A DNA stretch of 64,000 bases, taken from assembly GCA_040386275.1 (NCBI GenBank), contig JAZKFU010000008.1, positions 6,853-70,852 on the forward strand, in the 5' to 3' direction. The notes under the pieces were generated by a model, which worked only from the letters and a program-made list of their open reading frames with translations, was not told the DNA's origin and did not search any database. The position numbers were made by a program, and so were the translations under genes. Origin of the DNA: Patescibacteria group bacterium (GTDB lineage: Bacteria; Patescibacteriota; Minisyncoccia; Phycocordibacterales; UBA918). Shown here piece after piece: positions 14,375 to 45,284 of the stretch (the stretch's first letter is position 1; the number at the start of each line of letters is the position of its first letter).

Positions 14375-14844
14375 GGTCGAGTAAATTTGTGAACGGTTTC
14401 TTCCATCACATCTTCAACGTGGACTTCAGCCTCGCTTTCGAAATCAAATACTCCAGCCATGATGCACGCGATCTTCCAGTCTTCCATGACCATTCGGTTG
14501 CTACGGGATTTCTTCCGTATTTTTGAAACAGACTGGTAGACAATTTTTTCTAGTTCCGCCACTTTTGTGGCGATTAAATCATCCAAGATGCGAATGGCGT
14601 GCTCACCCTCATCGGTATCCCATTCGTATTCTTGTGCTAGGCCGTACACCGTATCGCGACTAAGCATCATGAGAATAGATTTCAATGTTTGCTTAGTAAA
14701 TTGGCGATGATACTGATGGTGAAGGTGGTCAGGCTTCGAAATGGCTGAAAAAATCTCAGCACACAAATTAAGTATGATCTTCCCGTGAGAGTCCCGACTA
14801 TAGATTTCAGGAATCCCTATCACTTCCCAGACGCTTTTGTCCAT
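14371..14844 (-). CDS. hypothetical protein (157 aa)
   Basis: ORF only. Confidence 0.45.
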   Translation of the reverse strand: MDKSVWEVIGIPEIYSRDSHGKIILNLCAEIFSAISKPDHLHHQYHRQFTKQTLKSILMMLSRDTVYGLAQEYEWDTDEGEHAIRILDDLIATKVAELEKIVYQSVSKIRKKSRSNRMVMEDWKIACIMAGVFDFESEAEVHVEDVMEETVHKFTRP

Positions 14845-14942: not shown

Positions 14943-16214
14943 TTGCGTGACGCTGGCATAATTTTGATAATATTATACTCATTAATAGAGATTATAGTGA
15001 TAATTTTAAAACACGGAACAATTGAAGCGGTTGAACTGGATAACGAGGTTTTTAAAACTTTGTTGGGTTTTTATCCTGAGGAAAATTTGGTTGAGTATCG
15101 TCTTTTTAAGGGTCCTATGGAAAAAGGTTCGATGACAATAACCGAGCTAAAGGACGCCAGTGAAAAAATTCACCTTCCATGGCAAATGTTCTTGTTAGAT
15201 ATGGTTAATCTAGAAAGAGAATTAAAAAATATTGAAGATAATCGACTTGATAAGTTCCCTAAAGGTACTTTAGAGATTCATAAGAGAAAAGGCGCTGGTT
15301 GTATTACCTCAAAACGTATTATAGACAGACAAATCAGAATTCAGGCGTTTGTAACTTCTCAGCTTCCAGCCAATTTTATTTGTGATTTTGTTGGTTCTCT
15401 GAAAAATAAAACAGTTGACCATGCAGTCAAGCATATCATTGAATATTTCCAAATCAACCTTAATCATTTTCGTACTTATGATGAAGCAGAGAAGGCGAAG
15501 AATTATTTGATCTCTCGTATACAGTCAAAACAAAACATAAATGTTGCCCAAGGGGTGCGAACAAATGGTATTTTACCTGAAATTAAAAATACTTTAGAGA
15601 TTTATAGAAATACGAGTGGTTTTGTGGTGCAAGACAAGAAACTTCCATTCATCTTTTTGCCAAGTGAAATAAATCCTGACGAAAATCATTATCGACAAAT
15701 TTACACCCTTCTTTATTTATTGGTAGTAGTTGGTATGAATGAGTTTTCTCACGCAATTGAAAATTACTCAATTAAGAAAATTAGAGAGGACAAAAAATTT
15801 AAAAAAATTAACATGATTGTTTCTGAGCTGTTTTTGCCGTCTTTAGTTACTAATACCCTAGATCAAAAAACGATAGATAAAGAAGCGATCAATAAATTGA
15901 AGATGGACTATAAGTTATCGTACTCTGCTGTGCTTTATGTCCTAAGAATGAGAAAAGTTATTGATGCTGATTTGGCTAAGGAGCTCGATTTGCCCAAGAG
16001 GCAACCTAGTAAGGTTAAAGAAGCTGTTGAATCAGCAAAGACATATTTCTCTCATCCTCACATTACTACTTCAGTTAAAAAATTCTGCGGGGACGTAGCA
16101 ACAGTAAGTATAAATACTGCTATTAGAGATGGACTATACCCTAATCGAAGTCAAATGATTGTGTTTGGTCGACCTAGAAAAGATAAATGGATTGAGCTCC
16201 GTTCAAGAATATGA
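14943..16214 (+). CDS. hypothetical protein of the AT-rich island; possible degenerate ImmA/IrrE (M78)-like domain. True start may be the internal Met at about 15115
   Basis: Segment VVVGMNEFSHAIENY…(about 25 aa)…SELFLPSLV resembles the M78 HExxH…E..F..L.P core but reads NEFSH, so it is probably inactive. The 3' end overlaps the next gene (ATGA). Confidence 0.45.
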   Translation: MRDAGIILIILYSLIEIIVIILKHGTIEAVELDNEVFKTLLGFYPEENLVEYRLFKGPMEKGSMTITELKDASEKIHLPWQMFLLDMVNLERELKNIEDNRLDKFPKGTLEIHKRKGAGCITSKRIIDRQIRIQAFVTSQLPANFICDFVGSLKNKTVDHAVKHIIEYFQINLNHFRTYDEAEKAKNYLISRIQSKQNINVAQGVRTNGILPEIKNTLEIYRNTSGFVVQDKKLPFIFLPSEINPDENHYRQIYTLLYLLVVVGMNEFSHAIENYSIKKIREDKKFKKINMIVSELFLPSLVTNTLDQKTIDKEAINKLKMDYKLSYSAVLYVLRMRKVIDADLAKELDLPKRQPSKVKEAVESAKTYFSHPHITTSVKKFCGDVATVSINTAIRDGLYPNRSQMIVFGRPRKDKWIELRSRI

Positions 16215-16675
16215 AAATAATCGATATGAACATTATTAGTAAGTATTGTGCTGGGGAAATTCAGGTTGATTTTACTGATCCGGTGTACGTTACTTCAGAA
16301 CTTAAGGATGAAATTGAAATACACAAAGCGTCTTTTCCAGGTCATCGTACAAAACTTCAAGGGATAAAGTTTGTAGATATTGAAATGTATCAATATCCTG
16401 GCGGAGAACATTTTGATGAAGCAAAATATTTATTCCATTACAAAAAACTTATTAATAAATATACCAAGATCACTTCATTCTACGGCCTAAAAGGTGTGGG
16501 CGATATGTCTATCTTGGCAGCTGTTGCAACACTTTTGGGTCGAAATAATCCATCTTTATTCGATGCACAAGAATCAATTGAAGTTATGACTCATGATATG
16601 GATTTAAAAGTAGCATTAACTGAAGAATTTGGAGATTTAATAGTTGTCATTGATCCGCTCACATTACAACAATAA
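16211..16675 (+). CDS. hypothetical protein, PIN-like nuclease fold suspected
   Basis: N-terminal IIDMNII motif, internal acidic residues, GDMSILAAVATLLG…THDMD pattern similar to PIN D…ilAaA…TrD; translationally coupled to the upstream gene. Confidence 0.4.
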   Translation: MKIIDMNIISKYCAGEIQVDFTDPVYVTSELKDEIEIHKASFPGHRTKLQGIKFVDIEMYQYPGGEHFDEAKYLFHYKKLINKYTKITSFYGLKGVGDMSILAAVATLLGRNNPSLFDAQESIEVMTHDMDLKVALTEEFGDLIVVIDPLTLQQ

Positions 16676-16781
16676 AACCAACAACAGCCCTCGGGTTTTT
16701 ACCCTCAAGCATCACAATAATCTCGTCTAGAAAAATAGGAATAAAATAGACCCGTATAGGTACTTCAGGTATACTCCAAAT

Positions 16782-18044
16782 ATGCCCGAAAAACGTTATG
16801 TGTTTAGAGTTAAGGAAAACAAACTCTATATAGTCTATATTGCTGAAGATGTAACTTGGGTGTTTGGTAATCTGGAACTTTCGGGCTCTGCTAGTCTGCG
16901 AGGAAAAGTTTTTACCGTTACAGGGGGTGAGATACTGAGTGGGGTTGAGCACTTATCACAAGAAGCAGAATTTCCAATAGGAAAAAAGGAAGGTGAGTAT
17001 TATAAAATTAGTCCTCAGATATTAAGTACTCAAAAACCTATTTTTATACATGAAAGTGTAATTGACGATTTTGAGCCCGAAGATTTTTTCGTAAGGCAGC
17101 CTTATTTTGAAAGAACTGCTGGTGACGGTTCTTCAATAGGAGTTCAAAATGAAAAATTTATTCCGATTTTCCCAGTACTAGAAAAAATGTTTGACGAAGT
17201 GTTGCGTATAGGAGGAGAGGAAGAAAATAGCATACCGTTAGAGGTGTTTAAAAAAGCCATTAGTGTTTTACCTGATAGAAAAGAAGTTAAAAGATATCTT
17301 GATGCAAGAATTGCACATATTATTGGTGAGTACATAACACCAAAAAGAGATTTTGACACTCATCACGAAAAGTTAATTGCACACCGTGAAGCACAACTAA
17401 CAAGGAGAAATTTAACTCCAACTCTGTTCCAAGAAACTAAAGAATTAAAAAAGGAAATTTTTCAGATTGCGTATGATGAACTTAAAAGGATGCTTAATGG
17501 CAATCTAGTAACTATACCTGAAAGTGAATGGCAAGATAAAATTTTGGACATCATATTACTTCTGTACCCCAAATACGTTCACAAAGAAAAGTCTGTGGAA
17601 GTCATTAAAGATCAAGGGTATGGTTTGGTCGATATTATGTTATTTGATGCTGCAGGATTTGTTGATTTGATTGAAGTTAAGAAACCTGAGGTAAATGGGG
17701 TGGGCGTGCTTAGAAAAGCTTTGTACCGTAAAAACTACGTACCGAGCAGAGAACTATCTGGTGCAATAATGCAGGTTGAGAAATATTCATTTTGGTTGTC
17801 TAGGTGGGGTAAAAAAGGAGAGGAAAAGATTCAGCAAAAATATGCGAACGAACTACCAGATGGTATGAAAGTTAAAATAGCGAATCCAACGGGAATAATT
17901 ATCTTCGGGCGAGATGAAGATTTCAACGAAGAAGAAAGACAGGATTTTGAGGTGATAAAAAGAAAATACAAGCATGTGGTCGATATATTGACCTATGATG
18001 ACTTACTAAGGAGGATTGCAAACATAATCAACATACTAGAATAA
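16782..18044 (+). CDS. Shedu-like (DUF4263) PD-(D/E)xK nuclease-domain protein
   Basis: C-terminal region GLVDIMLFDAAGFVDLIEVKKPE … ELSGAIMQVEKYSFWL … GIIIFGRDEDF…VVDILTYDDLLRRI matches my recollection of DUF4263 hallmarks (D…iElK, QxxxY, viiGr, iTYDdLl). Confidence 0.55.
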   Translation: MPEKRYVFRVKENKLYIVYIAEDVTWVFGNLELSGSASLRGKVFTVTGGEILSGVEHLSQEAEFPIGKKEGEYYKISPQILSTQKPIFIHESVIDDFEPEDFFVRQPYFERTAGDGSSIGVQNEKFIPIFPVLEKMFDEVLRIGGEEENSIPLEVFKKAISVLPDRKEVKRYLDARIAHIIGEYITPKRDFDTHHEKLIAHREAQLTRRNLTPTLFQETKELKKEIFQIAYDELKRMLNGNLVTIPESEWQDKILDIILLLYPKYVHKEKSVEVIKDQGYGLVDIMLFDAAGFVDLIEVKKPEVNGVGVLRKALYRKNYVPSRELSGAIMQVEKYSFWLSRWGKKGEEKIQQKYANELPDGMKVKIANPTGIIIFGRDEDFNEEERQDFEVIKRKYKHVVDILTYDDLLRRIANIINILE

Positions 18045-18268
18045 TAAGACAACCTAATTGGGGAGGTTGAGTATTTCACAAGACATACTTAGTTTAGCAG
18101 GGTATTTTTTTTACCCCTCTCTAAACGGCGCTTTTTGCAGGAATCGAACCTTTGTCAATAAAAGTATATACTTAAATAAGGGTCACTGAATCATGGACTT
18201 CAGAAAGTATCTACCTATCTATTTCTAAACGCTCTTTTAACAAAATGTAAAGTTCATTCTAATTAAGT

Positions 18269-22324: not shown

Positions 22325-22870
22325 TTAGGCGTGCATTTTATGGCGCGCGCAAGCCACATTTTGTTCGTACTCTTCACGGGTGAAGGTTCTTGGGGGGTTC
22401 AATCTTTCGAGAAAGAGAATGCCATCGAGGTGATCTTGCTCGTGTTGGCAGACTCGGGCTAGAAAACCTCTAAAGGTTTCCCGTACTCGTTTACCTTGGC
22501 GATTGGTGAAGGCCATGGTGACCGTTGCGTGTCGGGGGACTAACCCGTAAGTGTCCGGAATGCTCAGGCAGGATTCCCAGTCGGTAACCTTCCTCTTTGA
22601 TCGTCTGAGAATAACAGGATTGATCATTGCGGTTGGTTCGCGCGTGGGAGCGTCGGGGTAGAGGGGGCAGGGTTTTGAGGAGATAATGAAGATTCTCCGA
22701 TCCTCATTTACCTGCGGTCCAGCTATCCCAAGGCCATGTGCGTTCTGGTAGGTCTCAATCATATCGTCGATGAGTTTCTGAATAACAGGGTCATCGACCG
22801 CTTCAACTTCGTGGGCTTCCTCGGTGAGGATTGGATGCCCGATTTTTACGATGGGCAGCACGTTGGGCAT
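22325..22870 (-). CDS. def: peptide deformylase (copy 1; start taken at MPNVLPIV with RBS aaggaggg)
   Basis: GIAGPQV, CLSIPD and QHEQDHLDGILF motifs. Confidence 0.85.
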   Translation of the reverse strand: MPNVLPIVKIGHPILTEEAHEVEAVDDPVIQKLIDDMIETYQNAHGLGIAGPQVNEDRRIFIISSKPCPLYPDAPTREPTAMINPVILRRSKRKVTDWESCLSIPDTYGLVPRHATVTMAFTNRQGKRVRETFRGFLARVCQHEQDHLDGILFLERLNPPRTFTREEYEQNVACARHKMHA

Positions 22871-23196
22871 GATGCCCTCCTTTGAATTTGAATGATGGGG
22901 AACTGTTTCTGTAACTATCTTACAATTTGTTACTAACAAATACAAGCAATTGTACACACAAGTAGTTAACTAGGTTAAGATATTCGAAACGCAGCATGTC
23001 AACATACATTTCTACTATAATAATGAAATATAGGTTCAACCTGAATCTTAGAGACTTCGATTACTGTGCTAATCGCTGGGTAGGTTGGCTTTTTGGTCAT
23101 GGCTAACTCCTGTTAAGAACATCTACAATGTATAACGTACAAAATTAAAGTTTATTTCGGAAACTGATTTAATTAATACAAAAACTAACGTAAGAA

Positions 23197-24793: not shown

Positions 24794-24910
24794 TTTAAAA
24801 TCCTCCTTGGATTGCTGGGAACAGGGTTTGAGTTCAACTAATAAATTAGAACACTAAGTGTGTTATGTCAATGTAAAGCTCGCAGGGCTGGATTCGAAGC
24901 TCACAGCTTC

Positions 24911-25140
24911 AGTACAGGTTGTCGCTCGTTTGTTTCCTTTCAGTCACAAACGTGACAGGCTACCTTTTCGAATCCTGCCGTAATTGACATTTAGTCACTT
25001 ACTCCCGGGGCAGGAATTTCGGTTGTTACACAACCAGTATCCCAATTGGTTCTTTTATTTCCTTTCAGTCATAAAAGTGCTCAATTGGGCTTCGAATCCT
25101 GACGTAAGGCACATTTAGTGCCTTACTCCCGGGGAGCATT
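24911..25140 (+). repeat. two tandem ~123-bp units containing tRNA-Asn 3'-end-like segments split by a stable 9-bp hairpin
   Basis: Units start tttcctttcagtca…; each has …cttcgaatcctg[c/a]cGTAA..CAtttaG..TTACtcccgggg…; a further tRNA-3'-end-like fragment in opposite orientation at 24868-24898. Confidence 0.6.
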
Positions 25141-25183: not shown

Positions 25184-25506
25184 CTCCCCGGGCAGGATTC
25201 GAACCTGCGACCAATCGATTACACGTATTCATGCGTTACTGCATGGGTGGACTATATCATCACCGGTCACATTATTGTGCTGACGGTGCAAGGCGCTTCG
25301 AAAGTTTTCACTTCCTACTCCCGTTAGGGATAGTCTCTGAACCTTCAATTGGATTTCTCCAAAAGCTTGGCTGCTGATTGCCCTGGCTTGCGCCGTGGGG
25401 GTTCCAGCAATTCACCTTGTTTGCAATATCGATTTCTCGATAAGGCTGCTATTTTGAACATTGTTCAATGTTACAGTCGACTGCTCTACCGCTGAGCTAC
25501 CGAGGA
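25184..25506 (-). tRNA. tRNA-Asn(GUU) interrupted by a 251-nt group I intron (exon 1 = 25506-25473, exon 2 = 25221-25184)
   Basis: Minus strand: TCCTCGG-TA-GCTC-AGCGGTA-GAGC-A-GTCGA-CTGT | intron | TAA-TCGAT-TGGTC-GCAGG-TTCGAAT-CCTGC-CCGGGGA-G. All stems pair; the spliced anticodon loop CTGTTAA and discriminator G match bacterial tRNA-Asn. Confidence 0.8.
25222..25472 (-). ncRNA. group I (IC3-like) self-splicing intron in the anticodon loop
   Basis: Contains P (GAATTGCTGGAA), Q (AATCAGCAGCC), R (GGTTCAGAGACTATCC) and S (GATGATATAGTCC) core elements; IGS GCAG pairs with exon CUGU giving U:G at the 5' splice site; intron ends in G. Confidence 0.8.
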
Positions 25507-25665
25507 AGGTAACTTACTTCAACTTTATCCTAATGCTTAGGGTTCATGACTCTGGTTCGCAGTCGACCAAGGTCGACCTTCTTACTTTCAACTGAGTGAA
25601 CAAAGTGGACAAAATTATTTTGTACATTTTTGAACGAGGGAAGAAAGGAAGTTTACTTACAGAAG

Positions 25666-25746
25666 CTGTTCACTCATTGGGTATTTTTACAAAATCCCTC
25701 AATGAGTCTTGCGAACTGACATTGAGTCAGTTCTCACTCTACCGCT
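25666..25746 (+). ncRNA. structured RNA-like motif, copy 1 (two hairpins between conserved CUUACAGAAGCUGUUCA … UCUUGCGAA … UUCUCAC)
   Basis: Conserved single-stranded segments and hairpins whose stems differ from copies 2 and 3 by fully compensatory changes. Confidence 0.4.
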
Positions 25747-29494: not shown

Positions 29495-30097
29495 TTACGT
29501 TACCAACTTTTCTTTCTCTTCTTTCTTTAATTTCTTTTTAGCTTTTTCGAGTTCGTCCTTGTGCCAGATTTCTTCGGCGCGATCGGTGAATAAAATGCCA
29601 TCAAGGTGGTCATATTCGTGTTGGATGATTTGCGCAAGTAGAGAACCGGCGCCACGTTCGTACACTTTGCCGTGTTCATCTTGAGCACGAATGGTGACGT
29701 TGGTGGACCGGCGGACAATACCGTAGTACTCAGGAATTGAAAGGCAGCCTTCGCCCACTTCATGTGTCTTTTTTGAATACTTCACAATTACGGGATTGAT
29801 GGCAATGAGAGACGGTAAGGCGTCACGATCTTTACTTTGGTCTTCAATCAGGAAAATACGCTTACTGACACCAATTTGCGGAGCAGCAATGGCTACTGCG
29901 GTGTATCCGTCTACTTTGTAAGTATGAAGCGCAGACCGCATATCTTTTAAGATTTTAGCAACCGTGCCATCAGAAAATTCTCCCGAAGTAATTTCTTCGG
30001 CAATGGTATGGAGGGCAGGGTGATTTTCGGGTACGAGCTTGGCCATAATTAATGAGCGTACTATAGCGTATTTACAGAGAAAAATGAAGTAAAACAA
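29495..30097 (-). CDS. def: peptide deformylase (copy 2; true start probably MAKLVPEN at 30046)
   Basis: GIAAPQIGV, GCLSIPE and QHEYDHLDGILF motifs. Confidence 0.85.
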   Translation of the reverse strand: MFYFIFLCKYAIVRSLIMAKLVPENHPALHTIAEEITSGEFSDGTVAKILKDMRSALHTYKVDGYTAVAIAAPQIGVSKRIFLIEDQSKDRDALPSLIAINPVIVKYSKKTHEVGEGCLSIPEYYGIVRRSTNVTIRAQDEHGKVYERGAGSLLAQIIQHEYDHLDGILFTDRAEEIWHKDELEKAKKKLKKEEKEKLVT

Positions 30098-34031: not shown

Positions 34032-35540
34032 TTAAAATTCGTCTAGATATTTTATATCCGCTCCTAAGGAAGCGAGGCGGGCTACTAGATTTTCATAACC
34101 CCGATTGATACTGTAGATGTTACGCAAGACCGAGCGACCAGAACCACCAAGCATCGCGATGAGAAGAATTGTTGCAGGACGCAGAGCGGGCGGACAGATA
34201 AGCTCGGCTGATTTAAGTGGGGTCGGGCCCGTAATGTAAATACGGTGCGGGTCCGCCAAGACCGTGTCCGCTCCAAGTTTCTCGAGTTCAGTAAAATAGA
34301 TGGCTCGCTTTTCATACATCCAATCGTGAATCAGGGTTTGGCCCGAGGCTTGAGTAGCAATCACCGCAAAGAAGGGGAGGTTGTCTGCGTTGAGTCCCGG
34401 GTACGGGCGAGAGTGAACTTTTTCTGGTGAAGCTACTAATTTGCTTGGTTTGATTTTTAGGTCCACCAACTTGGTGTATCCATTTACTGCCAAGTACGGT
34501 TTGGAGGTTGAGTATTGCAAGCCCATTTTTTCCAGCACCAACAGTTCTAGTTCTAAAAACTCAATCGGTGCGCGAGTTATGGTGACTGCTGAGTTAGTTA
34601 CAATCGCTGCTGCGATAAAGAACATACTATCGGTTGGATCTTCTGCTAAGGTGTATTCAATATCTGTATGGATGTCGGCCACCCCGGTGACAGTTAAGGT
34701 GGTAGTCCCAATACCTTCAATCTGTACGCCAAATAGTTTAAGAAAGACACAAATTTCTTGCACCATGTAGTTAGCACTCGCATATTTAATCACCGTTGTG
34801 CCTTCATGTAAGGCTGCGGCAAATAAAACATTTTCCGTAACCGTGTCACCTGATTCATAAAGAATAATTTCAGTCGGTTTTTTTACGTCAGTTGTGACTT
34901 TAAATTCTTTTTCGGTTGTCTCGATGTGCACGCCATAATGTTCAAGCGCGTAAAAATGAGGACGAACGGTCCGACTACCCAATTTACATCCACCAGACTG
35001 TGGGAGACTAAATGAAGACATCTTGTGAATCAGTGCGCCGATGAACATGACGATGCTGCGGGTTTTTCGCGCGGCTTCAACATCAATTTTTTTGAGGTCA
35101 AACTTTTTTGGGGGTGTAATGGTGATGGTGCTACCGGTCCAGACTATGTGCATCCCGATACTTTGCAGTACCTCGATGATTCGGTGTACTTCTTCTATGC
35201 GGGGCATACGATGGAGGGTAGTCACGCCACGGTTTAATAACGAAGCACACAATAGGCCGACAGCGCCGTTTTTACTGGTATTGGTTTCAATGGTACCGGA
35301 GAGTTTTTTGCGTCCGTTAATTTCAACGTTCACCGTGCCAGGTGAAAGGGTAATTAGATTTTTACCTAACGCTACACCAATTTTTTTTAACATCTCAGCA
35401 CTGATATTTTGTGTGCCTGATTCTAAACGAGCGACGGCACTTTGGGTGGTTTTTAATTTTTTAGCCAGTTGGGTTTGCGTAAGGCCGACGGATTCTCTTA
35501 AATCTGCAATTCGATTTCCAATATTTTCCATAGTTCTCAA
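34032..35540 (-). CDS. murA: UDP-N-acetylglucosamine 1-carboxyvinyltransferase fused to an N-terminal XRE-type HTH domain
   Basis: Residues 1-62 (…IADLRESVGLTQTQLAKKLKTTQSAVARLESGTQNISAEMLKKIGVALG) are a Cro/C1 HTH. The remainder is MurA (INGRKKLSGTIETNTSKNGAVGLLCASLL…LPQSGGCKLGSRTVRPHFYALEHYGV with the catalytic Cys). Single uninterrupted 502-aa ORF. Confidence 0.85.
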   Translation of the reverse strand: MRTMENIGNRIADLRESVGLTQTQLAKKLKTTQSAVARLESGTQNISAEMLKKIGVALGKNLITLSPGTVNVEINGRKKLSGTIETNTSKNGAVGLLCASLLNRGVTTLHRMPRIEEVHRIIEVLQSIGMHIVWTGSTITITPPKKFDLKKIDVEAARKTRSIVMFIGALIHKMSSFSLPQSGGCKLGSRTVRPHFYALEHYGVHIETTEKEFKVTTDVKKPTEIILYESGDTVTENVLFAAALHEGTTVIKYASANYMVQEICVFLKLFGVQIEGIGTTTLTVTGVADIHTDIEYTLAEDPTDSMFFIAAAIVTNSAVTITRAPIEFLELELLVLEKMGLQYSTSKPYLAVNGYTKLVDLKIKPSKLVASPEKVHSRPYPGLNADNLPFFAVIATQASGQTLIHDWMYEKRAIYFTELEKLGADTVLADPHRIYITGPTPLKSAELICPPALRPATILLIAMLGGSGRSVLRNIYSINRGYENLVARLASLGADIKYLDEF

Positions 35541-37061: not shown

Positions 37062-39830
37062 ATGTTCGAGCGTTCATCAAAACAATTTGCGTCGCCAGAG
37101 GAGGAAGTGCAATATTTGCGCGAGCGGATTGCGGTGCGCGAACGAGAAATATTAGGACGGACAACGGAAGTTGATCACGCTGATTACGAAACCATTGCCA
37201 AACAAGAGTTACACGACTATGGCATGTTTACACCCAAGGTTATTCTAAATCCCGACCACGCGTTAACTGATCATGAAGTGGCGTCTCATAAAGAAGCACT
37301 CATCACCAGTCGGGACCCGGCTGAACAAATCGTGCAAGTTGCCTTTGAAAAGGGAATTCGCAATGCGCTAACGCTTTTGGAAAAAGTATCCAACCCCTTT
37401 GTGATTGATGAAGTGCATCGGCAATTAATTGAACACATAAAACAAGGGCAAACGGTCCAAGATATGAAAGAAGGGGTACCACCCTGGGGCATATTACACA
37501 TGACGCTGTTTGAAGTGACCTTGCCCGAACTTAAGGGAGTGAATGATAAAGAGTATCAACTAGCTGATTTGGTGGGGATGATGGAGCAGTTGTTTGCGGG
37601 TATGCGCAGTATTGCACATACCGATACCCGTAATACTTTTGTGTTTGAAATTGCGGTGGCTGACAATAGTGATGACATTATTTTTTATACCGCGGTACCA
37701 ACGCAGTTCGTTACCTTGTTTGAAAAACAAACTTTGTCCCTATTCCCGCATGCCGTAATTATCGAACAGCTCCATGACTACAATATTTTTGTACCTAATG
37801 GTACGAGTATTATTGCTGATGTCACCTTAGAGAAACATCCCATTTATCCATTACGCAGTTACGATCAATTTAGTGCTGATCCACTCAATGTAATTTTAAA
37901 TGCTTTTTCAAAAATCGAACGCGAAGGAGGAGGTGCGGCGATGCAATTTATTGTCCGGTATCCAAAAAACGATTACCGTAAAACGTATTCCGAAATATTA
38001 AAGAAAGTGCAAAAAGGCACCAAGCCAAAAGAAGCCATTGCGCGCAGTACGATTGGTGGCGAAATCGGAGCGTCGGTTTCTGAGTTGTTTTTCTCTAAAC
38101 CAAAAAAAGAAGGGGAGTATGAACCACCAAAGGAAGTAGATACTGAAGCGGTAGAATTATTCTCTAAAAAAATTACGAGTCAGATAGTCGAAACTAATAT
38201 TCGGATTGCGGTTTCAGCTACCGTGCCTCACCGAGCTGGTCAAATCATGTCTGAGCTTGCCGCCACCCTGCATCAATTTGCGACGGTTGATAGTAACCAG
38301 TTTGTCATTACTGAACGAAAGGGAACTGCTCTTAAGGTAGCCGAGAAAGCATTTTCATTCCGAGAATTTAATCCTAAAGTCACCATTCCGTTGTCCTTGA
38401 CTGAATTATCTACCATCATGCACTTTACGGGTAATGGTATCTCAACGTCGCCACAATTTAAACAATCAGGCGCCCTGACCGCAGCTGCACCAACTGAAAC
38501 TCCGACCGAGGGGACTCTGCTTGGGATAAACAAACACCGCAACTTGGAGAAGAAAATATTTATGACCGAGAAGGACCGCATGCGCCATTTCTACGTCATT
38601 GGGCAAACCGGTACCGGTAAGTCAGTGTTTTTGAAAAACCTCATTACACAGGATATTTTGCGCGGGGACGGAGTCTGTATGATTGATCCGCACGGGACTG
38701 ATATCGTTGATATATTAGGAGCAATTCCACCGGAACGAGAAAAGGATGTGATTTATTTTGATCCCTCTAATTTGGATATGCCAATTGGGCTTAACATGTT
38801 GGAGTACGACCAAAACAAGCCCGAGCAAAAGACGTTTGTGGTTAATGAGTTGTTTTCAATTTTCCAAAAGTTATACGGTGGCAACCCAGAATCAATGGGT
38901 CCAATGTTTGAACAGTATTTCCGAAATGCGACGTTACTCGTGATGGAAGATCCCGATTCAGGAAATACCTTAATGGATATTTCGCGCGTAATGGCAGACG
39001 CCAAGTACCGTCGAATGAAATTAGAGAAAGCCAAAAATCCAGTGGTGGTGCAATTTTGGCGTGAGATTGCAACCAAAGCCGGTGGGGAGGCATCGCTCGA
39101 AAACATTGTGCCGTACATCGTATCTAAATTTGATGTGTTTACCGCCAACGATTACATGCGTCCAATTATTGGCCAGCAAAAATCAGCGTTTAATTTCCGT
39201 GAAATCATGGATGAGAAAAAAATTCTTCTCGTGAATCTTTCTAAAGGACGATTGGGTGAGATTAACGCTAACTTAATTGGGATGATAATTGTCGGCAAGC
39301 TGTTGATGGCGGCGTTGTCTCGCGTAGATAATGAAGCGATGGATTTCCCACCGTTTTATTTACACATTGATGAGTTCCAAAACGTATCAACACCGTCAAT
39401 TGCCTCAATTTTGTCTGAAGCGCGCAAGTACAAATTAAGTCTCACCATGGCCCATCAGTTTATTGCTCAGCTTGATACTGATATTAAAGATGCGGTGTTT
39501 GGTAACGTAGGCTCTATAGCGTCATTCCGAATTGGTTCAGATGACGCGCAGTTTTTAGAGAGTCAATTTGCTCCCGTATTCCAAGCATCAGATTTAATGC
39601 AGGTACCTAATTACAACGCGATGATTAAAATGCTCGCTAATGGTACGCCAACTAAACCGTTTAGTTTAGCCACGATGCCACCGTTTACCGCCAATAGTAG
39701 TAAGGTGGCCGAACTTAAATCTCGTTCAGCACAACGGTATGGACGCCCGAGAGCCGAAGTAGAAGCTGAAATTGACGCTCGCTATGTGAAAGAGCCACTG
39801 TTGCCACCACCACTTAGTGGTATGATGTAG
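37062..39830 (+). CDS. VirB4/TraC/TraG-superfamily (type IV secretion-like) P-loop ATPase, 922 aa
   Basis: Walker A GQTGTGKS, Walker B LHIDEFQNV, C-terminal ARKYKLSLTMAHQFIAQLD (RKY…Q motif of T4SS ATPases); about 500-aa N-terminal domain without homology I can name. Confidence 0.55.
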   Translation: MFERSSKQFASPEEEVQYLRERIAVREREILGRTTEVDHADYETIAKQELHDYGMFTPKVILNPDHALTDHEVASHKEALITSRDPAEQIVQVAFEKGIRNALTLLEKVSNPFVIDEVHRQLIEHIKQGQTVQDMKEGVPPWGILHMTLFEVTLPELKGVNDKEYQLADLVGMMEQLFAGMRSIAHTDTRNTFVFEIAVADNSDDIIFYTAVPTQFVTLFEKQTLSLFPHAVIIEQLHDYNIFVPNGTSIIADVTLEKHPIYPLRSYDQFSADPLNVILNAFSKIEREGGGAAMQFIVRYPKNDYRKTYSEILKKVQKGTKPKEAIARSTIGGEIGASVSELFFSKPKKEGEYEPPKEVDTEAVELFSKKITSQIVETNIRIAVSATVPHRAGQIMSELAATLHQFATVDSNQFVITERKGTALKVAEKAFSFREFNPKVTIPLSLTELSTIMHFTGNGISTSPQFKQSGALTAAAPTETPTEGTLLGINKHRNLEKKIFMTEKDRMRHFYVIGQTGTGKSVFLKNLITQDILRGDGVCMIDPHGTDIVDILGAIPPEREKDVIYFDPSNLDMPIGLNMLEYDQNKPEQKTFVVNELFSIFQKLYGGNPESMGPMFEQYFRNATLLVMEDPDSGNTLMDISRVMADAKYRRMKLEKAKNPVVVQFWREIATKAGGEASLENIVPYIVSKFDVFTANDYMRPIIGQQKSAFNFREIMDEKKILLVNLSKGRLGEINANLIGMIIVGKLLMAALSRVDNEAMDFPPFYLHIDEFQNVSTPSIASILSEARKYKLSLTMAHQFIAQLDTDIKDAVFGNVGSIASFRIGSDDAQFLESQFAPVFQASDLMQVPNYNAMIKMLANGTPTKPFSLATMPPFTANSSKVAELKSRSAQRYGRPRAEVEAEIDARYVKEPLLPPPLSGMM

Positions 39831-39836
39831 GTATTT

Positions 39837-42314
39837 ATGGAGCGACAGCCGACTGTAATTCGTCCCAACATTGTGTCTTCTGAGGCTTTTTTGCAGCCTC
39901 CGGTGAATAATGAGCGAATTGAACCCCAAGCAATTGATCCAGCCTACCCACGGTACGAAAAAACTACTACAGAAATACTGCCCACCATCCCAACTAAAAT
40001 TGTTCCCATTATTCCAGAAAATATTGTAGTGATGGATGCGTCATTACAAGCGCTCAAAAAATTTATTGATAATCCGGTTACGGCCGAAGAAATTCCCAAC
40101 AAAGAAGCATTTATGCGGAATGTTTTTCCATGGATTGTTAACGCGCTTTCAAACGCCGAATATGATGCTGCCGGAATTGATGCATTTTTAAAGCAATCAA
40201 TTGATACGATTGATTTTCACGCCCCAACCGAAAAATATTTACATGATATCAACCGAGTGTTACAAAATATCTGGAAGCAGGTAGTGGTAGAAAAAGGAGC
40301 TACACCGCATGAGGTACGACCGGTAGTGCCTGTTAGTGAACCTTTACTGCTTACGAAAAAGGAACAAGTACAAGATATACTTGTTTCAAGTGGCCCAATG
40401 GTAGAAAAGGTTGATGCAAGCAAAGTGTCCAGCGCGACTACAAAAGCGTTTGAGAATACATTAGAATCTTTGGATAGCGAGCCGTTTAATCGAGAAGCGT
40501 ATTTGCAGTTTGTGTATGAAGTACATACGTCACTTCGTGATCGGTATGATGCGGTAACAAAAAGTGCTCAACAAAATCTCAAACGGTATAGCGAATTTTA
40601 CACACCTTCACCAACCGAAAAAGAAGCGTTACAGTTTTTGTCTACCCTTAAATCACAGTATGTACGTTTGCAGTCAAAAAACTCGCTTTTGGGAGTTACG
40701 CGCGCTGAAGTAATGAATAGCTTAAATAAAACTGATGGGTTTACCAAAGAAGACGAGGTGAAAACATTTATCCATGATTACCTCGCGGGGACAGAAAATT
40801 TGTTTACCAGTATTGAACGGCTCGAAGCAATGATTGAGTCGGCTAAAGGAGAAGAAAAGCCAGCCTTGGGCGAGGCGTACCGCACCCAGTTTGAAAGTTT
40901 GCGTGTTGCCGGTGAAAAAATTCTCACCACGTTACCTACCAGTCATCCACTGTATAACGATTTTAAAGTAGTAGTTGAAAAAGGGATAGGGGATTTAATT
41001 ACGGCCGCGGCCGTAGAAAATAACGGAGACAAAGCAGTCCTCGAGCGTTCATCATATTTTATAATTTTGCGTGACCGGGTAAAAGCATCTATCGCGTATA
41101 TTCAAGCGGAGCAAGAATTTGAAAACTTTAAACAACGACAACTTCGGTTAGTGCAAACATTAGAGTCGTCCCTAACGGCTGGCACCGAAATGTTACCGCA
41201 AGAAAAGGTAGTGCTTAAAAAAACAATTCTTGAAAATATTGAAAAGATTAATCATGCGCTTACTAAAGCGGGTGCCTTGCCCGCGGGCGCCAGTTTGTTG
41301 TCATTATCGCAATCAACTCTAGAGAGCGCCACAAAAGACTTTGCGACTGAACGTGAACAAGTGAAGTTGCTGTTGGGTGAAACAAAAGAAATCCTGAAAG
41401 AATTACAAAACGATACATCGTTATTGATGACTACCGAGTCACCAGATACAGAGAAAGTGAGTGAGTCAGTGCCAGAGCCAACTCCAGTAGTAGACGCCAT
41501 ACTAGTGCCGTTACATGAACGTTCGCAAAGGTACGCATCGGAAATTTCTGAATCGGCAGTTAGTCGTGACCGTTTACGTCAAATCCGCTCACTTTTTAAA
41601 CCAGCGCGTATCGGGATGTTGGCTCTTGTAGCCGCTGCGTTTGGTTCAGATCAATATAAACCAACTAACACTAATGGGGGAGCATTATCACTTTCTACGT
41701 TAATGGGTGTATCAACTTCCGCTATCACCCCGGAATTATCGCTTGATAGAATGGCGATTGAAGAATTTTTAAAGCATGCAACGCAATCTAAAGAAGAGGT
41801 ACAAGGAAACGTTGACAGTCTGCCGTTGGTAGAAATTCCTAAGCTGACATCGATACCTGAAGTGACTGAAGAAGTGCCGGGGGTAGTGTTGCCTTCTACG
41901 GTGTATTCTGTGCCTGAAGCAAATATTCCACGGGAATTAAAAATATTTGGTGCAGCTGACACGATACCGTTTGACCCGAAAATGAGTTTTAATTCGCCAA
42001 CCCAATCAGAACAAGGAGCGATGTATACCGAAAAAGACTTTCATACCCTACAGTACGGCGATATATTTTGGGATATTAGTGAAGGCGAGACGCTTGCCGG
42101 GACGTTGCCGGTAATGAAGCAAATCAATCCTTATTTTAAGCAGCATCTGATTGATCGTCTGCGAGATCGAATCAACAAGAGTCCTGAATTACGTAAAAAA
42201 ATTGGTGGCTTTGGCGATACCGCTAATGAATTAGTTACCGGAGCACGTATGAATCTCAAAGTCCTTAATGAAGAGTTTACGATAGAAGCAGTTAACGCGG
42301 GTTATTTACAATAA
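39837..42314 (+). CDS. large hypothetical protein (825 aa), mostly alpha-helical with one probable TM segment
   Basis: Starts 7 bp after the ATPase gene; coiled-coil-like; hydrophobic stretch ARIGMLALVAAAFG. Confidence 0.55.
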   Translation: MERQPTVIRPNIVSSEAFLQPPVNNERIEPQAIDPAYPRYEKTTTEILPTIPTKIVPIIPENIVVMDASLQALKKFIDNPVTAEEIPNKEAFMRNVFPWIVNALSNAEYDAAGIDAFLKQSIDTIDFHAPTEKYLHDINRVLQNIWKQVVVEKGATPHEVRPVVPVSEPLLLTKKEQVQDILVSSGPMVEKVDASKVSSATTKAFENTLESLDSEPFNREAYLQFVYEVHTSLRDRYDAVTKSAQQNLKRYSEFYTPSPTEKEALQFLSTLKSQYVRLQSKNSLLGVTRAEVMNSLNKTDGFTKEDEVKTFIHDYLAGTENLFTSIERLEAMIESAKGEEKPALGEAYRTQFESLRVAGEKILTTLPTSHPLYNDFKVVVEKGIGDLITAAAVENNGDKAVLERSSYFIILRDRVKASIAYIQAEQEFENFKQRQLRLVQTLESSLTAGTEMLPQEKVVLKKTILENIEKINHALTKAGALPAGASLLSLSQSTLESATKDFATEREQVKLLLGETKEILKELQNDTSLLMTTESPDTEKVSESVPEPTPVVDAILVPLHERSQRYASEISESAVSRDRLRQIRSLFKPARIGMLALVAAAFGSDQYKPTNTNGGALSLSTLMGVSTSAITPELSLDRMAIEEFLKHATQSKEEVQGNVDSLPLVEIPKLTSIPEVTEEVPGVVLPSTVYSVPEANIPRELKIFGAADTIPFDPKMSFNSPTQSEQGAMYTEKDFHTLQYGDIFWDISEGETLAGTLPVMKQINPYFKQHLIDRLRDRINKSPELRKKIGGFGDTANELVTGARMNLKVLNEEFTIEAVNAGYLQ

Positions 42315-45081: not shown

Positions 45082-45284
45082 GAAGCTATGAAAACGGCAC
45101 ATTGCGTTGTCACTGCTGCGGTACATTTCCTTCCGCCGTGAGAAAGTCTGGGAGACTTTCGCAAGAGGTTGCCAGCTCTTTTGTAAAAGAGCGATAACCT
45201 GAACAGCTTCTGTAAGAAGCAAGAAGTACGTCTACAGAAAATGTCCTTGCGTTCCTAGCACTGCACTCGTTTTCATAGCTTCTT
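45082..45284. mobile_element. MITE-like element with perfect 16-bp terminal inverted repeats
   Basis: agaagctatgaaaacg (45082-45097) and cgttttcatagcttct (45269-45284) are exact reverse complements; interior carries structured-motif copy 3 and a hairpin-repeat fragment. Confidence 0.45.
45138..45216 (-). ncRNA. structured RNA-like motif, copy 3
   Basis: Reverse complement gives CUUACAGAAGCUGUUCA-[GGUUAUCGCUCUUUUACAAAAGAGCUGGCAACC]-UCUUGCGAA-AGUCUCCCAGACU-UUCUCAC. Confidence 0.4.

Follow-up and report, generated by a model that had tools for sequence, protein, structure and literature searches.

The window analyzed here is a 64,000-nt stretch of contig JAZKFU010000008.1 (positions 6,853 to 70,852 of the forward strand) from the Patescibacteria group bacterium assembly GCA_040386275.1. 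On its minus strand, at positions 25506..25184, lies a tRNA-Asn(GUU) gene into which a 251-nt group I intron is inserted, separating anticodon position 35 from position 36. In its default mode, ARAGORN reported no tRNA anywhere in the 64-kb window; with introns allowed, the same program returned one gene, tRNA-Asn(gtt), with a 251-nt intron and exactly the borders given below. Here and throughout, labels of the form L121 denote homologous loci or contigs that were compared with the window. The gene and its terminator are laid out as follows.

25506..25473, minus strand, 34 nt: 5′ exon of tRNA-Asn, positions 1 to 35, comprising the acceptor 5′ strand, the D arm, the anticodon stem 5′ strand and loop nucleotides C32, U33, G34 and U35; called by ARAGORN with introns allowed and identical to the first 34 nt of the uninterrupted L121 gene
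25472..25222, minus strand, 251 nt: group I intron, ending in the terminal (omega) G at 25222; matched by the Rfam model RF00028
25221..25184, minus strand, 38 nt: 3′ exon of tRNA-Asn, with the discriminator base G73 at 25184, comprising U36, A37 and A38, the anticodon stem 3′ strand, the variable loop, the T arm and the acceptor 3′ strand; identical to the 3′ 38 nt of the L121 gene
25170..25149, minus strand: intrinsic terminator, a hairpin followed by a U run, 13 nt past the discriminator base

All stems of the joined tRNA pair (acceptor TCCTCGG/CCGGGGA, D GCTC/GAGC, anticodon GTCGA/TCGAT and T GCAGG/CCTGC), and no CCA is encoded at its 3′ end. By sequence inspection, a hairpin and T run are found at the equivalent place in two related loci, L121 and L122. 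Joined in the Asn register, the exons are 91.7% identical over the exon body to annotated tRNA-Asn genes, the references for this comparison being annotated phage tRNAs; 15 tRNAs were present at the loci fetched, with none for Asn or Thr among them. The Rfam model Intron_gpI (RF00028) matches 25467..25229 on the minus strand over its full length (model positions 1–253), with a score of 79.9 bits (gathering score 50) and E = 1.1e-18. This match is far beyond chance, and it is the sole Rfam match in the window. An earlier, sequence-only reading of this DNA, made from the letters and their open reading frames, had described a tRNA-Asn(GUU) with a 251-nt group I intron after anticodon position 35 and had proposed the search with RF00028 that gave this result. 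Its coordinates, exons, cloverleaf stems and discriminator G all check out on the minus strand, and the introns-allowed ARAGORN call falls on the same borders. The P, Q, R and S elements that it quoted are present, as are the pairing of the guide GCAG with exon CUGU, the U•G at the splice site and the G at the intron end, for which the positions are given below.

The intron folds into the helices of a group I ribozyme, and all of the assigned helices pair in the window sequence. They are listed here in order along the intron, except for P9.0, which spans the end of the intron and comes last.

25476..25473 with 25449..25446, minus strand: P1, exon CUGU with the internal guide GCAG; U35 (25473) forms a U•G wobble with G25449 at the 5′ splice site
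25472..25457, minus strand: L1 hairpin, 6 bp, enclosed by P1
25442..25427, minus strand: P2 hairpin, UAUCGA-GAAA-UCGAUA, with compensatory changes in all 6 pairs
25419..25413 with 25295..25289, minus strand: P3, 98.6% paired
25289..25419, minus strand: stretch enclosed by P3, containing P4/P5, P6, the P7 5′ strand, P7.1 and P7.2
25409..25372, minus strand: P4/P5, with P4 98.4% paired and 5 of its 6 pairs covarying
25370..25342, minus strand: P6
25335..25331 with 25254..25250, minus strand: P7 pseudoknot, the guanosine-binding helix (R and S), GACUA with UAGUC, invariant in 31 of 31 sequences
25330..25319, minus strand: P7.1, UCCC-UAAC-GGGA, 98% paired across homologues
25315..25300, minus strand: P7.2, GGAAGU-GAAA-ACUUUC, 88% paired, all 6 pairs covarying
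25286..25263, minus strand: P8, an imperfect hairpin with 5 of 6 pairs covarying
25245..25230, minus strand: P9 hairpin
25248 and 25247 with 25224 and 25223, minus strand: P9.0, A25248 and C25247 with G25224 and U25223, presenting the terminal G25222 at the 3′ splice site

This fold is conserved by compensatory change. In an alignment of 31 endonuclease-free relatives that share the structural variant of the window, the proposed structure was paired in 91% of cells, as against 36–46% when the pairing partners were slid by 1–3 columns. Changes on both sides were found in 62 of the 89 pairs, and none of 500 shuffles reached the observed pairing values. Helices P2, P3, P4, P5, P6, P7.1, P7.2, P8 and P9 all covary in this alignment; P1 and P7 are invariant. 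The exon and guide motifs CUGU and GCAG are likewise unchanged in all 31 aligned homologues, and GCAG is present in 128 of the 130 related sequences compared. Two additional hairpins, P7.1 and P7.2, lie between P7 and the P3 3′ strand, an arrangement that is said to be a hallmark of subgroup IA, as reportedly set out by Michel and Westhof in 1990. Of the 130 sequences, 51 have the variant seen in the window, whose segment from P7 to the 3′ strand of P3 runs UCCC-NNNN-GGGA, then GUA, then a variable hairpin. The intron strand contains no ORF of 60 aa or longer.

A second splice register has to be weighed: with both borders placed two nucleotides upstream, after U33 and after ...ACG, the gene would read as tRNA-Thr(UGU), with its intron at 33/34 and CUUGUAA as its loop. 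ARAGORN with introns allowed reports Thr at 44 of the 120 homologous loci listed, tFind often does so as well (PMC13011429, Table 1), and in the window either register yields a loop of 7 nt, with U preceding the 5′ site and G preceding the 3′ site. The intron structure separates the two registers. In P1, U33 sits in a Watson–Crick pair with A, and U35 alone forms the wobble that marks a group I 5′ splice site. P9.0, the pairing of the J7/9 dinucleotide with the two nucleotides that precede the terminal G, forms in 129 of 130 homologues in the Asn register compared with 1 of 130 in the Thr register; across the 130 it does so with at least eight dinucleotide combinations (AC/GU, AA/UU, AU/AU, GC/GC, GA/UC, AG/CU and others). 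The would-be terminal G of the Thr register is a G in just 86 of the 130. The exons point the same way, since the Thr-spliced sequence still best matches the same tRNA-Asn genes, and the uninterrupted L121 allele reads CTGTTAA. Homologues spliced in vitro were sequenced and have their junction at 35/36 (PMC13011429). The upstream junction, which the sequence-only reading had itself named as the outcome that would count against its call, thus fails on four independent counts in silico (the wobble at U35, the covariation of P9.0, the match of the exon body and the uninterrupted allele). These results exclude the Thr register, to which we assign a probability barely above zero, and they settle the CTGT|TAA junction in silico. 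They also indicate that P9.0 covariation, at 129 of 130 compared with 1 of 130, offers a purely computational way to fix a disputed splice register.

To place the gene among its homologues, we scanned one genome per GTDB species with a pattern composed of the R element, a gap, the S element, a gap, TAA and the T-loop, which recovered at least 120 loci. At least 118 of these were parsed, and in every one CTGT closes the 5′ exon, G closes the intron and TAA opens the 3′ exon. The universality of these borders identifies all parsed loci as tRNA-Asn genes split at 35/36. The matches listed are mostly from Patescibacteria; other labels among them are Acidobacteriota, Nitrospirota, Cyanobacteria, Elusimicrobia, Omnitrophota, delta- and gammaproteobacteria, and more. 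When metagenome contigs were searched with the neighboring fmt protein, L121 (fmt 59% identical) and L122 (fmt 58%) came out as the two closest relatives. In L121, the tRNA-Asn gene downstream of fmt (L121:2035-2107) is uninterrupted and is identical at 72 of 72 positions to the window exons joined as CTGT|TAA. L122 carries, also downstream of fmt, a tRNA-Asn gene (L122:7152-7471) with exons 100% identical to those of the window and a 247-nt intron. Its precursor is 88% identical to that of the window, and the differences in the L1 hairpin, P6, P7.2, P8 and P9 are compensatory.

Taken as a whole, we hold it to be highly probable that the locus is the tRNA-Asn(GUU) gene of a Patescibacteria-like bacterium, split between U35 and U36 by a 251-nt endonuclease-free group I ribozyme. 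The gene would be transcribed as one precursor of ~323 nt that ends at the terminator 13 nt downstream, and the intron would fold into P1–P9 together with the peripheral hairpins P7.1 and P7.2. A free guanosine docked in P7 would attack the phosphate after U35, which is held in the U•G wobble of P1; P9.0 would then place the terminal G25222 in the guanosine site, and the exons would be ligated to give the loop CUGUUAA. The product would be an ordinary tRNA-Asn of 72 nt that still needs the addition of CCA, which the gene does not encode. The intron would persist by splicing cleanly after loss of its endonuclease. We infer catalysis from a 61%-identical homologue, that of GCA_016700035.1, which self-splices precisely at 35/36 in vitro (PMC13011429).

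Several observations weigh against this reading. P1 has just 4 exon base pairs. We considered an extension of P1 into the anticodon stem and rejected it: the base after GCAG is C regardless of exon position 31 (G in 93 cases, C in 19 and A in 11), with no covariation. With P1 short and without a covarying extension, binding of the 5′ exon looks weak on paper. P10 amounts to at most 2 bp and is not conserved among the window, GCA_016699245.1 and one Saccharimonadia sequence inspected, and it was not used as evidence. Lastly, 64 kb of the genome is in view, and a second, uninterrupted tRNA-Asn gene may lie elsewhere. The short exon part of P1, the lack of a homing endonuclease and the 64 kb open to inspection would also suit a decaying or inactive intron in what would then be a pseudogene, with Asn decoded by another tRNA-Asn copy elsewhere in the genome. 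We regard such decay as very improbable. Every core helix is intact in the window, and the differences from the L122 intron are compensatory. Moreover, L121 and L122 match the window exons at 100% although their fmt proteins are just 58–59% identical to that of the window, which indicates strong purifying selection on the exons.

The splicing-competent tRNA-Asn intron that we favor has known relatives. The four classical intron-bearing tRNAs of bacteria were expanded to 21 types by Williams 2020 (bioRxiv 10.1101/2020.01.27.920355), the Asn type of which is named Asn.4Ug in PMC13011429. Nakagawa et al. 2026 (mSystems, PMC13011429) reported 15 tRNA-Asn introns at 35/36 in complete Patescibacteria genomes, where this is the predominant tRNA intron, demonstrated that one Asn and one Asp intron self-splice precisely in vitro, and noted the Asn/Thr mis-calls that software makes. 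In the same work, 25 of 28 introns at 35/36 are of subgroup IA, and IC does not occur among the tRNA introns of Patescibacteria; for four published Asn 35/36 introns of other phyla, the subgroup given is IA1 or IA2. The view of the sequence-only reading, given with a hedge, that an Asn host interrupted at 35/36 would be unusual is therefore superseded, such introns having been catalogued by Williams 2020 and shown to self-splice by Nakagawa et al. 2026 (PMC13011429).

On sequence grounds, the window locus is an endonuclease-free member of this already catalogued family of tRNA-Asn 35/36 group I introns. It has the marks of a group I intron in its RF00028 score, its compensatory changes, the U•G at the 5′ site and the terminal G with P9.0, and it has those of the Asn 35/36 family in its host tRNA and insertion site, its homology to published members and its P7.1 and P7.2. 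The intron is 69%, 66% and 61% identical to published Patescibacteria tRNA-Asn introns (sequences from Table S3 of PMC13011429), the 69% being to the Paceibacteria intron of GCA_016699245.1 and the 61% to the Saccharimonadia intron of GCA_016700035.1 that was spliced in vitro. With the Asn.4Ug introns it shares the host tRNA, the insertion site, the CUGU/GCAG P1, the R/S core and an insertion between P7 and the 3′ strand of P3, as well as the ...GUG|UAA 3′ border of most members and the Asn-versus-Thr ambiguity in ARAGORN and tFind. It differs from them in several respects: the window intron is not among the published sequences; it has two small hairpins between P7 and the 3′ strand of P3, whereas the assayed Saccharimonadia intron has a single stem with a large loop; and it has a small L1 hairpin and no HNH ORF.

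An intron of comparable size in a bacterial tRNA is the IC3 intron of cyanobacterial and plastid tRNA-Leu(UAA), which is also a ~250-nt group I ribozyme within the anticodon loop and has U•G at its 5′ site, a terminal G and the shared AGAGACU/AGUCC core. The two differ in host and site (Asn at 35/36 compared with Leu at 34/35), in subgroup (IC3 for the tRNA-Leu intron, compared with the IA1 or IA2 given for four published Asn introns) and in architecture, P7.1 and P7.2 being present in the window and having, by inspection, no counterpart in the Nostoc sequence. Overall identity to the Nostoc tRNA-Leu intron is 49%. Kinship with the cyanobacterial intron was accordingly considered and rejected. 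The sequence-only reading had found the R and S regions nearly identical to those of the cyanobacterial tRNA-Leu intron; since R and S are generic group I core, this likeness carries little weight, and the specific connection does not hold when 49% identity to Nostoc is set against 61–88% to other tRNA-Asn introns.

Some relatives of the window intron carry an endonuclease gene. Lengths of 536–602 nt were found in 32 of the 130 related introns, 29 of which contain an ORF of ~100–135 aa; most such ORFs begin within L1, in the stretch that separates the 5′ splice site from the guide sequence. Three ORFs were tested against Pfam. Two matched HNH, one with 28.1 bits and E = 2e-6, above the curated cut-off, and the other with 19.1 bits, the cut-off being 21.4; the third gave no match. 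HNH genes have been reported in four Patescibacteria Asn introns (PMC13011429). The HNH-bearing introns have the same ribozyme and site as the window intron, and their ORF occupies L1, the position of the 6-bp hairpin in the window; the window intron differs in being 251 nt long and lacking an ORF. In the ORFs inspected, L016, L022 and L001 among them, the guide sequence and P2 region (GCAGCUUCC) encode the C-terminal part, ...QLP, so coding and ribozyme functions overlap in these introns. Most likely, the window intron descends from a homing version with an HNH gene in L1 that spread into intron-less alleles, its endonuclease having since been lost. The intron-less L121 beside the intron-bearing L122 and window fits such a homing-competent ancestor.

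A different account of its retention is that the intron is kept because it regulates the supply of tRNA-Asn, for instance by guanosine-, Mg2+- or stress-dependent splicing, and is not a neutral selfish element. Nakagawa et al. discussed a regulatory role as speculation (PMC13011429), and such a role would agree with wide retention in very small genomes, in at least 118 species, and with the conserved priA-def-fmt neighborhood. The two closest relatives by fmt identity, however, are polymorphic for presence and absence of the intron while having identical exons, and an HNH endonuclease occurs in about a quarter of relatives; both observations are predicted for a mobile, dispensable element. No ligand-sensing domain is indicated by the sequence. 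We consider regulation unlikely, and prefer descent from a homing intron that now persists by clean splicing.

Downstream of the gene lies a second structured feature, present in two tandem copies.

25137..24999, minus strand: structured element of ~137 nt, directly after the tRNA-Asn terminator, supported by covariation
~25011..24878, minus strand: second, degenerate tandem copy of the element

RNAalifold predicted a multi-hairpin fold from four copies of the element, in which one hairpin has a conserved UGUAA pentaloop. The ends of the element pair in L121 (GCUCCCCGGG/CCCGGGGAGC) in a manner that mimics the tRNA-Asn acceptor stem, with one mismatch in the window copy. Its last ~21 nt resemble the segment of tRNA-Asn from the T-loop to the discriminator, and the 5′ strand of the element is, in addition, complementary to the 3′ end of the real tRNA-Asn and to its trailer. 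A covariance model was built from the four copies and searched against the other loci. Strong matches were found in L121, L122, L052, L037, L067, L063, L084 and L062, and weak ones in L028 and L044. The element stands right behind tRNA-Asn in eight contigs (the window, L121, L122, L052, L067, L062, L028 and L044) and ~3.6 kb from it in L037 and L063. Over nine sequences, 93% of cells were paired compared with 35–48% when the partners were slid, and double changes occurred in 35 of the 48 pairs. In all, at least nine Patescibacteria-like contigs conserve the element. Rfam returned no match for the element at E up to 10, and a literature search for a comparable RNA found nothing relevant.

The element is also present beside the intron-less allele of L121 and is therefore independent of the intron. 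We considered whether it might be an integration scar (attR), which is unlikely: no integrase lies nearby, the hairpins covary, and the genes between tRNA and element at the 3.6-kb loci are ordinary (radical SAM, NUDIX, kinase). Tentatively, and with other explanations together having the better chance, the element may represent a small RNA not described before, which imitates a tRNA minihelix and has a functional tie to tRNA-Asn, for instance in processing, CCA addition or aminoacylation; or it may be an alternative structure that controls maturation of the intron-containing precursor, a possibility raised by its complementarity to the tRNA 3′ end. Two further weak matches to the model in the window, at 25637-25743 (minus strand), just upstream of tRNA-Asn, and at 45131-45241 (plus strand), score 24 bits with E ~0.01 and may be due to chance.

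The gene lies in a housekeeping neighborhood that contains priA, def, fmt, hpf, a glutaredoxin-like gene, genes for a fasciclin-domain protein and MarR, the tRNA-Asn gene, AhpC and a second def. Several intron-bearing loci labeled Patescibacteria, Saccharibacteria or Parcubacteria show the order tRNA-Asn ... fmt, def, priA as well. On this synteny, and on the likeness of the intron to those of metagenome-assembled genomes with a Patescibacteria label, the host is placed as Patescibacteria-like. Two peptide deformylase paralogues, at 22325-22957 and 29495-30097 (both minus strand), flank tRNA-Asn within 8 kb. Elsewhere in the window are genes for ATP synthase, LysRS, ProRS and two PBP2-like proteins. 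A gene at 16782-18044 (plus strand) encodes a Shedu SduA C-terminal nuclease domain, of an anti-phage defense family; it is held in a low-GC patch at 16001-18000 (35.5% GC compared with ~43–44% around it), and T-loop-like fragments lie at 14730-14740 and 18138-18148. This stretch may be a small defense island. The T-loop-like fragments at 14730, 18138 and 24888 were also considered as tRNAs, for which relaxed ARAGORN gave noise alone. Farther along, 34032-35540 (minus strand) encodes a 502-aa protein in which an N-terminal HTH_3 is fused to a full carboxyvinyltransferase domain of the EPSP-synthase/MurA type, a fusion that looked uncommon. At 37062-42314 (plus strand), a 922-aa protein bearing a coupling-ATPase signature of the VirD4/TraG type precedes one of 825 aa that has no family match, and the pair may represent a type IV secretion or DNA-transfer module.

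Default tRNA finders miss the interrupted gene, so that in standard annotation the genome is apparently without tRNA-Asn. It would wrongly seem to lack this tRNA and would score as less complete, an annotation point already made in the literature. As one more endonuclease-free member of its family, the locus adds little new biology; the structured element behind the tRNA is the sole part of it with real discovery potential. For the family itself, the homologous loci indicate that the tRNA-Asn 35/36 intron is far more common than the 28 complete-genome cases, occurring in at least 118 species and many phyla, and the pair of intron-bearing and intron-less genes with identical exons downstream of fmt documents its recent gain or loss.

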